Shown: piece after piece, positions 2,125 to 60,609 of the stretch | How positions within the stretch are numbered: position 1 is the first letter of the stretch | Layout: each line of letters opens with the position of its first letter | Assembly (NCBI GenBank): GCA_964016885.1 | Contig: OZ024745.1 | Location: forward strand, 34,100,001 to 34,164,000 | Length of the DNA: 64,000 nucleotides | Direction: 5' to 3' | Origin: Eledone cirrhosa | Taxonomy: Eukaryota | Translations under genes and position numbers: made by a program | Notes under the pieces: model-generated | The model's database searches: none | The model's input: the letters and a program-made list of their open reading frames with translations, nothing else | What the model was told of the DNA's origin: nothing

Positions 2125-2290
2125 CGTTATTCCGGGTTGAATCGGAGGTAACCACAGTAAGTAAGGTACTCAATACATAGCAGAGTATAAAAGTTTTAAT
2201 ATAGATGATATTCTACAGGACTAGAACTGTTTCATTCTTTTGATTTCTAAAGAATGAAACAGTTCTAGTCCTGTAGAATCTCATCTATAT
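2125..2290. mobile_element. Mini head-to-head palindrome, PLE-type family A, in (TA)n
   Basis: Arms 2199-2240 / 2249-2290; near identical to 55652-55829 but with a different inversion junction (hammerhead core truncated). Confidence 0.75.
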
Positions 2291-2399
2291 ATATATATAT
2301 ATATATATATATATATATATATATATATATATATATATATATGCATATATGTTTATATATATTTATATTTATATTATATTACATTACATTACATACAAC

Positions 2400-2511
2400 A
2401 CATGGTAAACTGACATATACCTACCTAGGTACTCGGAGTTTTTCGAAGTGAGCTTACCTCAGAAAACTTCGAGTACCTATGAAGGTATATACATATGCCA
2501 GTTTCTCATGT
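2400..2511. repeat. Imperfect hairpin
   Basis: AAACTGACATATACCT..TAGGTACTCGGAGTTTT mirrors AAAACTTCGAGTACCTA..AGGTATA..TATGCCAGTTT. Confidence 0.75.
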
Positions 2512-2819
2512 GTGGTATATAATAAAATATATTTACCTCTATGCTTACCCATGGAGGCCACTTCTGTCCATCTCCGGATGGTATAGACGTGCTTCACATC
2601 GGCTCCTCGATTATTGGATATATTACGTGTTAACAGTAAGTGTTTGTCTGTATTCTTGCGTTATTGTGTTAATTAACCCCCTTGTCTATGTCTTCGGACA
2701 TTAGGGTTAATTTATTTCACCCCTTTCGGGGTGAAAATTTATTTCACCCCTTTTGGGGTGATTGTCTCTACGCTAGTGGTAACCATGACACGACCACTAA
2801 ACAAACTGAAAGAGCGGAT

Positions 2820-3065
2820 AGCGGTCTCTGACCCCATCATCGCTGCCATGTCCTGCGTCTCCAAGAGACCAGTGTCTGTCTTTAGGGCATCAACATATGT
2901 CAACCTCCGTTTCCCTCTTCTAGTGTGTCCATGCAGGGGATCCCACAGGAGCACTGAGTGCAGTGTCAACTCTGGATGTCGGTGAGCATGTCCAGCTAAC
3001 CTCAGTCTCCTCTGTGCTACCTTCGAGCTGACTTTTAGGAGGCTCCCGCACAACTCTGAGTTCTG
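2820..3065 (-). pseudogene. RTE-clade LINE extreme C-terminus, inverted relative to 3070-3620
   Basis: NSELCGSL.KVS.KV..RRLRLAGH..RHPE....VLLWDP.HG..RRG...LTYVD.L..DTG. Confidence 0.88.
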
Positions 3066-3069
3066 GAGA

Positions 3070-3620
3070 AACACCAGGACGCTGGCTTTGCTGTAACACT
3101 GGCTCAGAGAAGGAGAGTTAAGGCGAAAAAGATATCGGATGCTGAATTTGCCGACGACATAGTTCTGGTGACAAACACAGTGAAGGAGGCAGAGGAGTTG
3201 ATGCAGGAGGTAGAGACTGTGTCGATGAGTGTGGGGCTGAGTATGAATGAGATTAAGATGAAGTATCTGATAGAGAACATTAAGAAGGCAGAGAAGATTA
3301 CTAATGTAGGCGGGAAGCCGCTAGAATTGGTTGAGGACTTCCTGTATCTGGGAGCAAAGATTGGGAATACAGAAGATGATGTGGTCGAGAGGAAGAGCAA
3401 AACCTGGACGGCGTGCCACAGTTTGAGATCAATGTGGAAGTCCGACCTTCGTAAATACCTGAAGATCCGTCTCTTCGTTGATGTAGTGGAGTCTGTGCTG
3501 TTATATGGGTCTGAGACTTGGACACTAACCAAGACTCTCACCCAGATGGTGGATGGGTGCTACACGAGAATGCTGAGGATGGCTCTGAACATTAATCAGT
3601 ATACACTGAGGATGAAGAAC
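3070..3620 (+). pseudogene. RTE-clade LINE RT C-terminal fragment
   Basis: AEFADDIVL, GLSMNEIK, VEDFLYLG, SVLLYGSETWTL, YTRMLRMALN. Confidence 0.9.
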
Positions 3621-56534: not shown

Positions 56535-56862
56535 TATTTATATTTGCCTTTCATTTTGCCTTTCATCCTTACGGGGTCGATAAAATAAAGTACCAGTAAT
56601 GCACTGGGTAATTGCTGGCCTTGTGCCTAAAGTAGAAACAATTATATATATATATATATATAATGGTGGATATAACCAGTGGATTGGCAGTATCGGTAGA
56701 GAGTCGGATGCCATGCTTTCCAGCATAGTTACGTCCCTTTACGGTCTGAGTTCAAATCCCGCCGAGGTCCACTTTGTCTTTCATCCTTACGGGGTCGATA
56801 AAATAAAGTACCAGTAATGTACTGGTTAATTGCTGGCCTTGTGCCAAAAGTAGAAACAATTA
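56535..56862 (+). mobile_element. Two Nin-type SINEs (truncated plus full) separated by (TA)n
   Basis: Core at 56535-56645 and 56678-56862. Confidence 0.88.
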
Positions 56863-56889
56863 TATATATATATATATATATATATATAT

Positions 56890-57089
56890 ATTAGAAACAG
56901 AAGCTTTCACCATATTTTTGACACAGAAATTTTAGCCTGATAGTAGTGTTTAGAACCTTCAAAGAAATCGAAAAAGATGAGTATTGACGTACATACTCAT
57001 CTTTTTCCATTTCTTTGAGGGTTCTAAACCTCAATATTAGGCTAAAATTTCTTTAGTCGAAAATACGGCGAAAGCTTCTGTTTCTAATA
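56890..57089. repeat. Fully palindromic ~200-bp element between (TA)n tracts (diverged fold-back or MITE)
   Basis: TTAGAAACAGAAGCTTTC...GATGAGTAT-TGACGTAC-ATACTCATC...GAAAGCTTCTGTTTCTAA; mismatches mostly mid-arm. Confidence 0.85.
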
Positions 57090-58863
57090 TATATATATAC
57101 ATATATATATAATGAAATGCAAATTTAAATAATATCTGTAATAGTATCTGTATATATATATATATATATATATATATATATATACACACGAACAGAGCCG
57201 ATGTGTCCTTAATAAAATACTATATAGTATTGATCAAGTTTTATACATATATGTATAATTAAATTAAATATATAATTTCTTACGTTCAAGGAATAATTCT
57301 CTAAACATATTTGCGTGGCGTAACAGCGTTGTGGAAATATGCAAAGCCGTATAGAGAGGAGTATAGTATCAACCTGTTACATGATTTTGTTTGGGTAAGG
57401 AAGAGCACATTGTAGAGCTACTCTAGGGTTCTAAATGCCCAACCAATGTCTCTAAATGTCGGCTAATTCTGAATGCTTTACGTTTATTCACTGTCTCTTG
57501 TCGCGCAATTATTATTTTTACTCAGAATTTATTGACCTGATTACTTGAACAGACTTTGATGCTACAATTTTCCAATAATTTTTTTCCCCAGAAATATAAT
57601 ATCTGTGTGGCATTGTTCCTCGATATATTTTGTGATAACAGCAAGATCAAGATTGTGTGTACTTTTATTTGAATGAATTCATATTAACTTCCTAAATGTG
57701 ACAGATTTTCATTCAGAATGATTTATATTATAGTTCCTCATGTTGATGTCATTATAATTTTCTGTCCAATATATATTGGATTTCCTGAAACGATCTCATC
57801 TATGCATCCCACTTGTCGTGAATACTTGATCGATTTAAATAGAGCCGGATAATTTGAAAACTTGAAACAATTGTACAATTCAAGCCTATACTTAGTGATA
57901 TAAAAAAAGTTAGAAAAGAGTAAAACAAGAGAACAAGAAAACAACGCAATACAATGCAATACAATGCTGGTACATAATTTCAACGCTTGATATATTTCTA
58001 AAAGAGTCATAATGTTTCGGACGCTATATATATGTATAAATGTACACACACACACACACACACACATATATATATATATATATATATATATTTATATATA
58101 TATATATATATATATATATATATATGTGTGTGTGTGTGTATATATATATATATATATATACATACATATATGTGTGTATATAAATATATATATATACATA
58201 CATATATGTTTGTATATCTATATATACATATACAGATATCTTTGTATATCTATATATACACAGACACCCCCCCCCCACACACACACACACATATATTTAT
58301 ATATATCGTAACAAATTAAGATCATAGAGAATAGATTTCTAAAATCCTTTAATAACTTTACAAATGTTTCAATACAAGTAATTTAACTAATATTATAATA
58401 AAATATATATATATATTAGTGTGTGTTTACATTTGAGGTCTGCAATCAGTATTTCTTATTTGCAATGTATGTACTTAATTAACCTACTAAATGGAATGGA
58501 ATAGGCATTCATCGGTTTCGACACCCAGTGTTCCAGCATGCGCGTGAAATTAACTTATATGTGGCTTATCGTCCTATAAACACGTATACACGTAACATAA
58601 TTGTCAGGGAGATTCAGTGCGACGCAGCGGGAGACTAGGCTGGCTGATTGAAATACAAGTAAAACTCATTTCTGCCAGCTGAGCTGACTAGACCAACATG
58701 AAATATAGTGTGTTGTTCAACGACAGGATTCCAAATAATTTCTGTCTACTCAATTTCACTCATCAGTATTACATGTATCCCACTGTGGGCTCGAACCTGT
58801 AAATGAATGTCTGCTAAGGGGACGTCTTAACCTTTCAGCCACGCTGCACCAACAATGTTTTAA

Positions 58864-59143
58864 ATAATTGTTTCTACTTTTGGCACAAGGCCAGCAATTA
58901 CCCCAGTCCATTACTGGTACTTTATTTTATCTACCCCGTTAGGATGAAAGGCAAAGTTGACCTCGACGGGATTTGAACTCAAACTGTAAAGGTCCATAAC
59001 TCTATGTTATAAAGCACGGTGTCCAACGCTCTGCTGATTCTGCCAAAGTATTAAATAATTGTTTCTACTTTTGGTACAAGGCCATCAATTACTCAGTGCA
59101 TTACTGGTACTTTATTTTATCGACCCCGTAAGGATGAAAGGCA
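58864..59143 (-). mobile_element. Two tandem Nin-type SINEs
   Basis: Core at 58864-59047 and 59054-59143. Confidence 0.85.
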
Positions 59144-60153
59144 ATAAATAATGACAAAAATATTGACAAGAAATGGGTGAAGACGATAAAACTAATTGTC
59201 GCTATATAATATAAATATATTCTCTCTTAGTCCCTAATGTTACATTTTCAGTTGGATCTATTCATCCAAAAGTAATTAAATAATTAAATAACTACGCCAT
59301 GCCTTCTTATGTAAGTATTATTCACGTCTGTCTCGTCTATTGATTCACTAACTAAAGGAGAAATCACAGAGGAATAAGTAATTATTTCATTCTAAATGCA
59401 ATTTTTCGTCGTTAAATGCAAATGTAAAACTTTACATTTTCTTCTAAGCAGATCCAATATATCGACTGATACAACCCTGGCTGCACGCTACTAGACAGTG
59501 ATAGTAAAGATTGTGTTATATTTATTTATTTAAATTTTTTTTCATCGGGGGAACATTTTAAAAGCGAATGAGTAAAAAAATTGACAATCATCTAATCGAT
59601 AGGACATTTGATATTAAGCTGAGAAATTAATTTGCTGGTTAGTGGCGAGTTATGTTGCTAGCTAGTAACGAGGAAATTGTTAGGTAATCACACGGAAGTC
59701 TGCTTATTTCACGAAACTTAACGAGGACTTATTTTTCAGTGAGTTATTCAGTGAAAGAAGATAGTTTATGACAACGACCTGTTTATACAGTCATATACTC
59801 TTACACTACAACACATAAAAGCACACAAAAACCCTTACATACTCATACACCCTTACACATACAAGCAGACATAGACTCATAAACACTCATGCACCCCCAT
59901 CCCTATACGTTCCAAATTTCACGCACAATCTCTCTCTCTCTCTCTCTCTCTCGCCCACACACACATAAACGCACACATTAATTGAGATAAACACACATGC
60001 TTGCTGTTATTACAATTTAGTCATTAATAATTTTGTAAATAACAATTCCCGACTGAAACTACGAAATTTGTCACCGGGTTCAATCTACACATCACTTACC
60101 AAACAAATATTGTGTAATCATTATATATTTATATATATATATATATATATATA

Positions 60154-60609
60154 TGATCTCACCGCTGGCCTCTCTCTATGACGGGGCGGTAGTATTACAC
60201 TATAAGCCTACGCCCCTTCACCAGAAGGACATAAGAAGACTTAATAATCATCACTTGAGGGCGATTGACCGGGCTAGAAGCTGCTAAATGTTCGGCCACC
60301 CACATGTCTTTGTTTTTCAGCCCCATGGATTTTGTCCATTATATTCCTTTGTTATATTTCGAATACCTGATGATGTCACCGGATTCATACTGAACCCGGT
60401 CACTGAAATGATCATAGTATAATAAACCTTTTAAGGAATTACACCAGTCCGGACTCCTGTTATTTTATAATAATTAACTACGTACTCGCACCACCAACAA
60501 CACAAACGAAGACGGATGTGTTGCATTACGTCGAGTGCTCTCCATAATATTACATCGAGGTTGACCATACGGATGACCAGTTCTATCCAGTGGTGAACCA
60601 ACAAACCTG
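60154..60609 (+). mobile_element. 5'-truncated PLE-type 3' end inserted in (TA)n
   Basis: (TA)n on both sides; hammerhead, AATAAA and GTACTCG...CGAGTGC stem-loop in that order. Confidence 0.7.
60363..60420 (+). ncRNA. Type I hammerhead ribozyme
   Basis: ATAC-CTGATGA-TGTCACCGGATTCATACTGAACCCGGTCACT-GAAA-TGATCA-TA-GTAT, immediately followed by AATAAA. Confidence 0.85.

Follow-up and report, generated by a model that had tools for sequence, protein, structure and literature searches.

Hydra-clade Penelope-like elements (PLEs) carry canonical hammerheads and insert into (TA)n, among them Hydra-1_Obim of Octopus bimaculoides (Craig et al. 2021, PMC8557442). The clade is defined by an RWK motif, by DKT replacing DKG, by a CxCX5C linker and by CxxC and CxH flanking a conserved E and N, with CCHH absent; its members are generally <3 kb (PMC8557442). 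In Poseidon_Ac, which belongs to another clade, the enzyme cuts and extends both strands in vitro at AT-rich targets, two internal start sites define the tail, a dimer is predicted and hammerhead cleavage is not needed (Frangieh et al. 2024, PMC11167929). Hammerheads per genome number about 9,000 in Xenopus, >6,000 in coral and 126,247 in the axolotl, and the minimal hammerheads found in PLEs and in non-LTR retrozymes include palindromic helices III (dimer type), U3-A8 variants, opposite-strand pairs and non-coding tandem units derived from PLEs, all of which recur here (PMC4209133, PMC7229834, bioRxiv 10.64898/2026.07.22.740005). The association of hammerheads, PLEs and (TA)n is already published and is therefore ordinary taken alone; its density in the genome of Eledone cirrhosa is unusually high. 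The features of the 64-kb stretch analysed here (the window) are as follows.

2125..2285, palindrome: family E, long/short; first core half lost at the junction
3782..4005, minus: family B 3' end, short end; hammerhead 3828-3881, predicted cut 3832
4278..4450, plus: high-copy family, 3' end; core of a hammerhead plus helix II, helix I lacking
5546..5879, palindrome: degenerate long/short, hammerhead family (palindrome 5546-5727), with an inverted duplicate past a (TA)n run
11092..11198, palindrome: short/short, further hammerhead family; helix III halves only, long tail detached at 10843-10920 (minus)
25468..26398, minus: family C, a second Hydra family, 5'-truncated; GIY-YIG fragment 26307-25861, 33% to family A
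25526-25570, minus: putative U3-A8 hammerhead of family C, weak helix I
43857..47649, minus: family A long-end arm; ORF 47649-45452, first ~8 codons missing, broken by stops and frameshifts
43987..44051, minus: type I hammerhead of family A, predicted cut 43994, (TA)n 137 nt away
47663..51066, plus: family A short-end arm, head-to-head with the arm 43857..47649
50961..51025, plus: type I hammerhead of family A, predicted cut 51017, (TA)n 49 nt away
51089..51197, minus: 3' end of another hammerhead family; motif present at locus L236
51893..52583, minus: family D partial tandem; complete hammerhead 51964-52045, truncated hammerhead 52506-52583
52598..52876, palindrome: long/short, further family; longer copies carry a hammerhead-like motif upstream
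55652..55828, palindrome: family E, long/short; hammerhead 55765-55811 on the plus strand, predicted cut 55807
56258..56530, minus: family F 3' end; U3-A8 hammerhead 56399-56438, predicted cut 56403
56892..57086, palindrome: ~285-nt tRNA-cored tandem family, short/short; both arms stop at the tRNA 3' end
60155..60609, plus: family G 3' region, long end; hammerhead 60363-60420, predicted cut 60416

All nine hammerhead motifs of the preliminary description were found where it had placed them. Seven satisfy a strict descriptor of type I, which asks for a C3-G8 or U3-A8 core, helix II, GAAA, a helix III that is either palindromic or a hairpin, NUH and helix I of at least 4 bp, and possess the conserved core and the three helices; their cores start at 3876-, 44043-, 50968+, 52039-, 55769+, 56434- and 60367+. 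The motif 25526- is rejected, with a helix I of 2 contiguous bp throughout its family and a G>A change in helix II of the window copy, as is 52506-, which lacks the 5' strand of helix I. A distance of 20-190 nt to (TA)n, asserted for each motif, describes the seven accepted ones (21-193 nt; 24% of random window positions lie within 200 nt) but fails for 52506-, an inner tandem unit whose next (TA)n downstream is 619 nt away. One extra descriptor match, 23800-, lies 1202 nt from TA and is likely due to chance; local dinucleotide shuffles (n=100) give a mean of 0.04 motifs per window and a maximum of 1. Among the partial motifs, those at 2241, 5671 and 11092-11199 come from families that have complete motifs at other places, and the one at 4335 has no helix I in the 12 copies viewed. 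Single-strand folding, a method uninformative for dimer-type hammerheads, gives only two of the seven motifs a clear advantage over shuffles (z -3.4 and -2.0), and in most cases the minimum-energy fold is not the active shape. The best 150 matches of an Rfam E-value scan of the window (333 others rank below these 150) are all microsatellite or miRNA noise. About seven families had been proposed; seven high-copy families were indeed found, with the motifs as their 3' ends, each search returning hundreds to thousands of candidates and favouring copies most similar to the query. Three motifs do lie downstream of a GIY-YIG frame, as claimed, though two of these are arms of one element. Judged by their sequences, the window's hammerhead motifs are genuine and lie at the ends of several PLE families of an already described kind.

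The same holds on a larger scale. A random 1 Mb of the genome contains 70 descriptor motifs, and its shuffles 0-2 per Mb, so that the predicted excess over shuffled DNA is present. Extrapolation gives a genome-wide load of about 2x10^5 motifs, which exceeds the published counts found; this comparison of ~70 motifs per Mb with per-genome counts is rough because descriptors differ. The expected bias in distance to downstream (TA)n is likewise seen, with (TA)5 at <=250 nt from 55/67 motifs of the random 1 Mb versus 28% of controls (p~1e-19). The data support the view that PLE families, coding and non-coding, have inserted at (TA)n repeatedly, families A, C, E and F being found behind ORFs and family D without one. 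As an explanation of the sequence islands inside the microsatellites this view overreaches: a recognised family end adjoins only 18/68 (TA)n arrays of the window and 134/621 of the random set (both lower bounds), and other islands in (TA)n are filled by LINE and SINE fragments. Empty insertion sites were not seen, and the existence of (TA)n targets before insertion is therefore presumed.

Sequence comparison identifies the 43.9-51.1 kb palindrome as a frameshifted Hydra-clade PLE. Over 3.4 kb, 9 substitutions and 23 gap columns separate its two arms, which have their ORF breaks in common; in the long-end arm, the ORF is followed by a ~1.4-kb 3' UTR, the hammerhead and an 80-nt tail up to (TA)12. 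The intact ORF encodes 737 aa at other loci (L232-L251, 20/20, picked for long open frames). It is a single ORF with the RT first and, C-terminally, a GIY-YIG in which the Y-x-G, K-x-R, E and N columns are kept. The alignment shows RWR and DKT, in agreement with the RWK and DKT of the clade, the linker is C602-x-C604-x5-C610 (CxCX5C) with CCHH absent, and C694xxC697, E700, N712 and C721xH723 constitute a CxxC/CxH arrangement around the conserved E and N. A hammerhead of predicted canonical type lies in the pLTR. The family differs from published Hydra elements by its cut-to-cut unit of ~3.8 kb with a 1.4-kb 3' UTR (the <3 kb size being a tendency, not diagnostic) and by its great abundance; tails are about 60-165 nt instead of 30-40 nt. 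Compared by eye with Hydra-1_Obim, it is a different family with another hammerhead and a clearly homologous but diverged protein. Telomerase RT is the top match of the predicted fold; Pfam gave no match to the Hydra RT or EN of this family, and 29 protein homologs have 31-42% identity, Argonauta hians among them. A first look with the RT N-terminus gave 22,981 candidates, and 2.5% of the random Mb consists of Hydra coding remnants. A Naiad identity, first suspected, is excluded, since the C-terminal EN, DKT and hammerhead are opposed to the N-terminal GIY-YIG, DKA and lack of canonical hammerhead of Naiad. Terminal copies reach (TA)n at either of two set end points, and inner tandem units read on into the ORF that follows.

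Families C and E also lie behind Hydra-type ORFs, and other copies of family F sit behind a canonical GIY-YIG (PF01541). A coding partner was looked for and not found for families B, D and G. The family B end recurs inverted at 3700-3763. Family D, in which neither an ORF nor a Hydra or PLE motif match was found, consists of 541-542-nt tandem units (three in locus L083). Each unit has a type I hammerhead, which is the organization of a retrozyme, although retrozyme units measure 150-450 bp (PMC7229834). Family E is not a fixed MITE: within a copy its two arms vary together, and in locus L108 a Hydra ORF is found upstream, which indicates a truncation hotspot. The family at 4278..4450 may be Neptune-like, judging from its resemblance.

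In 47/48 head-to-head palindromes with a hammerhead on both arms, from nine families, one 3' end is short and the other long. This count leaves out 5 palindromes from three families showing a single end class; the thresholds were chosen after the bimodal distances were seen. The random set gives 10/10 with hammerheads on both arms and 13/13 when no hammerhead is required. Exceptions in the window are the short/short palindromes 11092-11198 and 56892-57086. Such pairing fits priming from both break ends at two known start sites. Two internal start sites that define the tail and AT-rich targets are shared with Poseidon_Ac, in which these sites are located inside the ORF and not, as here, at least 45 nt before the ATG; the sections consulted give no rule on how the two ends pair (PMC11167929).

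Collectively, the hammerhead islands are probably 5'-truncated 3' ends of at least seven PLE families, of which three are Hydra-clade, and every one of them stops beside (TA)n at either of two set positions through two-ended copying. These end points are likely explained by an element enzyme that cleaves (TA)n and uses the two resulting ends to start copying RNA. A GIY-YIG/RT dimer would cut both strands of (TA)n, and both DNA ends would prime reverse transcription on the same uncleaved RNA, the inner start site producing the short end and the outer one the long end, with the tail added. Both cDNAs would halt at variable points, and their joining would be head to head. RNAs that are defective or non-coding may be copied in trans, the same stops being present in both arms of the large palindrome. 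What counts against the two-ended short/long model is that the Poseidon study detected no start-site difference between the strands (PMC11167929). There is no sign in family A that self-cleavage sets the insertion: 17/19 fragments of the random set begin upstream of the predicted cut and 0/19 at the cut, so that a pile-up of 5' ends at the cut is absent. The hammerhead is probably under selection in source elements and likely serves a different step, for example the processing of tandem transcripts as dimers.

Other routes to these structures have been proposed. Hammerheads could cut tandem transcripts to monomers that become circles, and reverse transcription over more than one lap would yield partial tandems and copies crossing the cut site (PMC4209133). 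Near-invariant core positions with N7 free to be any of four bases (45 haplotypes), 0-2 substitutions in 11/15 inner/outer pLTR pairs and retrozyme-like non-coding tandem families of 310, 541 and 591 nt are in keeping with this route. The remaining 4/15 pairs, however, have 9-28 substitutions, which is impossible from a single monomer circle without template switching, the hammerhead-free tRNA-cored family behaves alike, and cleavage-dead mutants insert normally in vitro (PMC11167929); the circle route is accordingly unlikely, at perhaps one chance in four. More doubtful still is a route in which a single cDNA, or an antisense template, folds back and primes itself; self-priming has been proposed for inverted junctions of PLEs (PMC3846280). 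Near-identical palindrome arms (0-2 substitutions per ~195 nt between outermost arms in 21/22 palindromes, where the median between loci is 9) and the junction hotspots in hairpins of family E speak for it. Yet a fold-back copy cannot outrun its template, so that on this view the long-end arm would in every case extend further 5'; either arm may do so, and the short-end arm is the longer one in about half of the rows (family A rows being partly double-counted, and long/long rows, which are inner tandem units and an artefact of the reference used, being left out).

It is no more probable that (TA)n runs are largely insertion products, seeded or extended at the ends, so that elements build the microsatellite load and do not merely target it. 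Both palindrome ends adjoin (TA)n, element sequence often continues TA-like at the end points, and (TA)>=5 runs occupy 4.5% of the random sample; on the other hand, 487/621 arrays are without a recognised family end, and insertion into (TA)n is what the literature reports for Hydra and Naiad families. Motifs arising by chance in AT-rich DNA, or artefacts of assembly by fold-back, are hardly credible. The match 23800- is chance-like, and among short-read contigs from four sequencing runs that cover the family A element none spans the junction 47650-47662. Against this stand the 0-2 shuffled motifs per Mb versus 70 and the hundreds to thousands of candidates per family, which refute a chance origin, and the arms themselves, which differ, stop at different fixed points and have different flanks.

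The two-ended reading extends to a repeat that lacks the hammerhead core. The family at 56892-57086 is a circularly permuted tandem of 282-290 nt that has two set end points and forms palindromes, arms head to head, at (TA)n, and shows the short/long signature in 17/19 cases. Its core matches the tRNA model RF00005 of Rfam (38.1 bits, gathering 29), is called by ARAGORN at locus L124 and has A and B boxes. It shares these boxes, a high copy number and the lack of an ORF with tRNA-derived SINEs, but instead of a linear head-body-tail structure with a LINE-type or simple-repeat 3' tail it has PLE-type short/long ends and palindromes at (TA)n. Arms start at the tRNA start in 10/64 cases versus 2.5 expected, a weak excess, as the query began there. 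Homology to a PLE partner was absent among the loci examined, and a literature search found no description of a ~285-nt tRNA-cored tandem repeat. The Sm-alpha repeat of Schistosoma, which combines a tRNA promoter with a hammerhead, is similar. This tRNA-cored, ribozyme-free repeat likely rides the same PLE machinery. It is tempting, if still somewhat speculative, to propose that a hammerhead load (~2x10^5) among the densest known arises from PLE enzymes priming both (TA)n break ends at two start sites on one RNA, and that the same enzymes spread a SINE-like element in which the tRNA core replaces the hammerhead as promoter or RNA-processing signal.

What is added to the published association is the motif density, the short/long pairing and the tRNA-cored family with the same signature. 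The genome offers material for the open question of how PLEs make tandem and inverted insertions, with young families that have intact ORFs and a near-absolute short/long rule that separates mechanisms, and a ribozyme-free family behaving alike is relevant to the question whether a hammerhead is required in the first place. If true, a PLE-mobilised tRNA element would extend the pairings of small-RNA-derived passengers with retroelements (LINE-SINE, LTR-Cassandra/Helenus) to a third class. In annotation, short palindromic fragments at (TA)n are likely mistaken for MITEs, SINEs or miRNA hairpins.

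The finding holds up: the window is a dense record of elements of a kind already published, comprising new families from Hydra and other Penelope-like element (PLE) clades, with retrozyme-like passengers. Motif density, a rule of end pairing and a tRNA-cored family raise it above the routine.

The preliminary description listed nine complete-looking type I hammerheads in this sequence (33% GC, rich in (TA)n, from a 3.0-Gb assembly). A custom-written type I descriptor, run over both strands, passes seven of these and one likely chance match (23800-), versus a mean of 0.04 matches (maximum 1) in 100 local dinucleotide shuffles. 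The other two have faults in helix I. At 25526-, this helix has 2 bp in every one of the 14 loci inspected, and the window copy has a private change in helix II; 52506-, the inner unit of a tandem, has lost the 5′ strand of helix I. The latter lies 619 nt from its downstream (TA)n, so the proposal that every motif lies within about 20–190 nt of (TA)n fails there. Of the seven motifs that pass, six have a palindromic helix III, which PMC4209133 describes as the dimer-type form; the U3–A8 core variant described in that paper occurs on 25526- and 56399-.

Abundance was estimated from 100 random 10-kb stretches over contigs of known minimum extent. Strict motifs number 70 in this sample, spread over 33 stretches and 21 clusters (bootstrap 45–98 per Mb), versus 0–2 per Mb in five shuffles. 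The motifs are biased towards (TA)n: (TA)5 occurs ≤250 nt downstream of 55 of the 67 scorable motifs versus 28% of controls placed within those stretches, and (TA)n is nearer downstream than upstream in 41/55. Extrapolation gives about 2×10^5 motifs per genome (1.3–2.9×10^5); published counts, obtained with descriptors that differ between studies, put Xenopus at about 9,000 and coelacanth at 4,000 (PMC4209133), a coral at >6,000 and axolotl at 126,247 (PMC7229834). Among the matches listed for octopus and hammerhead ribozymes, only the Hydra paper PMC8557442 is relevant, and the word ‘ribozyme’ is absent from a 2026 octopus repeat annotation.

Own-genome candidates of the window's hammerhead-bearing families (first-look counts, all lower bounds; 40 scored per family)
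Family A: 590
Family B: 939
Family C: 2305
Family D: 2391
Family E: 757
Family F: 1861
Family G: 3006
Partial motif at 4335: 3074
Partial motif at 5671: 449

Hydra-type coding sequence lies upstream of families A, C and E, and a canonical GIY-YIG domain (PF01541, E 1e-7) upstream of F. Family D is a 541–542-nt tandem in which no ORF was found; for B and G, the 14 loci inspected per family yielded no coding partner. Other hammerhead families that are tandem and non-coding have units of 310 nt (loci L109, L164 and L238) and 591 nt (L105). TA-flanked palindromes at 55871–56181 and 26697–26815 belong to families without assignment; a hammerhead-like core lies upstream of a relative of the former (L064).

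The large family-A element, at 43857–51066, is a head-to-head palindrome. Full copies elsewhere begin with the hammerhead-holding pseudo-LTR (pLTR), with an ATG about 45 nt past the long end, and a 737–739-aa ORF is found in 20/20 loci chosen for long open frames. The protein alignment contains RWR, DKT, CxCX5C and CxxC/CxH, the diagnostic set of the Hydra clade in PMC8557442, which reports Hydra families with readily detected canonical hammerheads, almost all inserting into (TA)n; in its supplement, Hydra-1_Obim is entered as hammerhead-bearing and (TA)n-preferring. For the predicted structure (pLDDT 85), telomerase RT is the best match; named homologs come from Argonauta hians only, which makes an octopod cephalopod the probable host. 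Since both window arms share frameshifts and two stops, the template was likely a defective one, copied in trans. The Hydra ORF at L232:4171–6381 has Asn-rich, low-confidence inserts (residues 480–513 and 584–593) resembling those, likewise rich in N, of rotifer Penelopes (PMC3846280).

Nine families have two classes of 3′ end beside (TA)n, short and long (in family A, 49 and ~137 nt from cut to (TA)n). With thresholds set post hoc, 47 of the 48 palindromes whose two arms each carry a hammerhead combine a short end with a long one. This tally omits five palindromes from two families that have a single end class, and one row in which the inner (TA)n is long. In the random set, pairing holds in 10/10, or 13/13 without the hammerhead requirement, and inspection of family P by eye gives the same picture. 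The window itself has two palindromes that are short/short, counter to the rule. The 310-nt-unit family, with one end class only, is an exception. In 21/22 palindromes the outermost arms are 0–2 substitutions apart, where the median between loci is 9. Each of the two arms can be the one that extends further 5′, and the junctions show short overlaps or filler of a few bases. The pattern fits priming at each of two ends, with a single RNA as template, better than the self-priming proposed in PMC3846280. The PLE studied in vitro in PMC11167929 agrees with this: both strands are cut and extended, two start sites define the tail, a dimer is predicted and insertion can do without the hammerhead. That only one end bears a tail was noted qualitatively in PMC8557442 and PMC3846280.

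The hammerhead nevertheless retains a role at one stage or another: across 45 family-A haplotypes, eleven core positions show two deviations in total while N7 varies (22/13/7/3). Of 19 family-A fragments in the random set, 17 start upstream of the cut, and inner and outer pLTRs are unlike in 4/15 partial tandems; together this favours uncleaved linear RNA as template.

The family of the palindrome at 56892–57086 is young: among 1482 candidates, the best copies are 98–99% alike, and 4/100 random stretches contain it. Other copies lie at L124:2790–3182 and in L304–L333. Its tandem unit of 282–290 nt has a tRNA-like core (Rfam 38.1 bits; ARAGORN), and no hammerhead core was found on either strand of the one tandem copy tested (L312). 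Copies of the family stop at (TA)n at either of two fixed points, some 60 nt apart, and 17/19 palindromes have one short and one long end. These PLE-type insertion signatures make mobilisation by a putative PLE partner likely, and the ~285-nt family is possibly a PLE-mobilised SINE-like element. As a T5 run follows about 10 nt past the core, the tRNA may have been captured as a passenger and not serve as a promoter. The literature surveyed, in part, contains no similar element; one could already be in Repbase, Dfam, earlier papers on octopus SINEs or the supplements to the bioRxiv retrozyme preprint.

That PLE families explain the islands among (TA)n arrays holds in part. Recurrent clusters take in 424/1170 non-simple array edges. 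Judged against 218 natural 3′ regions used as a library, 134/621 random and 18/68 window arrays touch a family end, both lower bounds because further families emerged later. LINE fragments (2.8–3.6 and 17.9–20.0 kb) and SINE-like repeats fill other islands, and some SINE-like copies end at (TA)n, so TA-adjacent ends are not all of PLE origin.

Other repeats and duplications in the window
2820–3645 (+) and 27835–27962: LINE reverse transcriptase fragments (PF00078), presumably RTE-like, bounded by (TA)n
17900–20075 (+): broken LINE ORF2 (PF00078, PF13966), which we take to be L1/Tx1-like, ending at (TA)n
10588–10777, 21570–21900, 42914–43097, 56539–56856 and 58863–59162: abundant tRNA-type SINE-like repeat
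10912–11355, 11569–11712, 24650–24743, 5562–5864 and 3733–3812: short inverted duplications of flanking sequence facing across (TA)n

One random stretch (L107) contains, by eye, large-subunit rRNA-like sequence. The inverted flank duplications suggest fold-back repair at (TA)n breaks.
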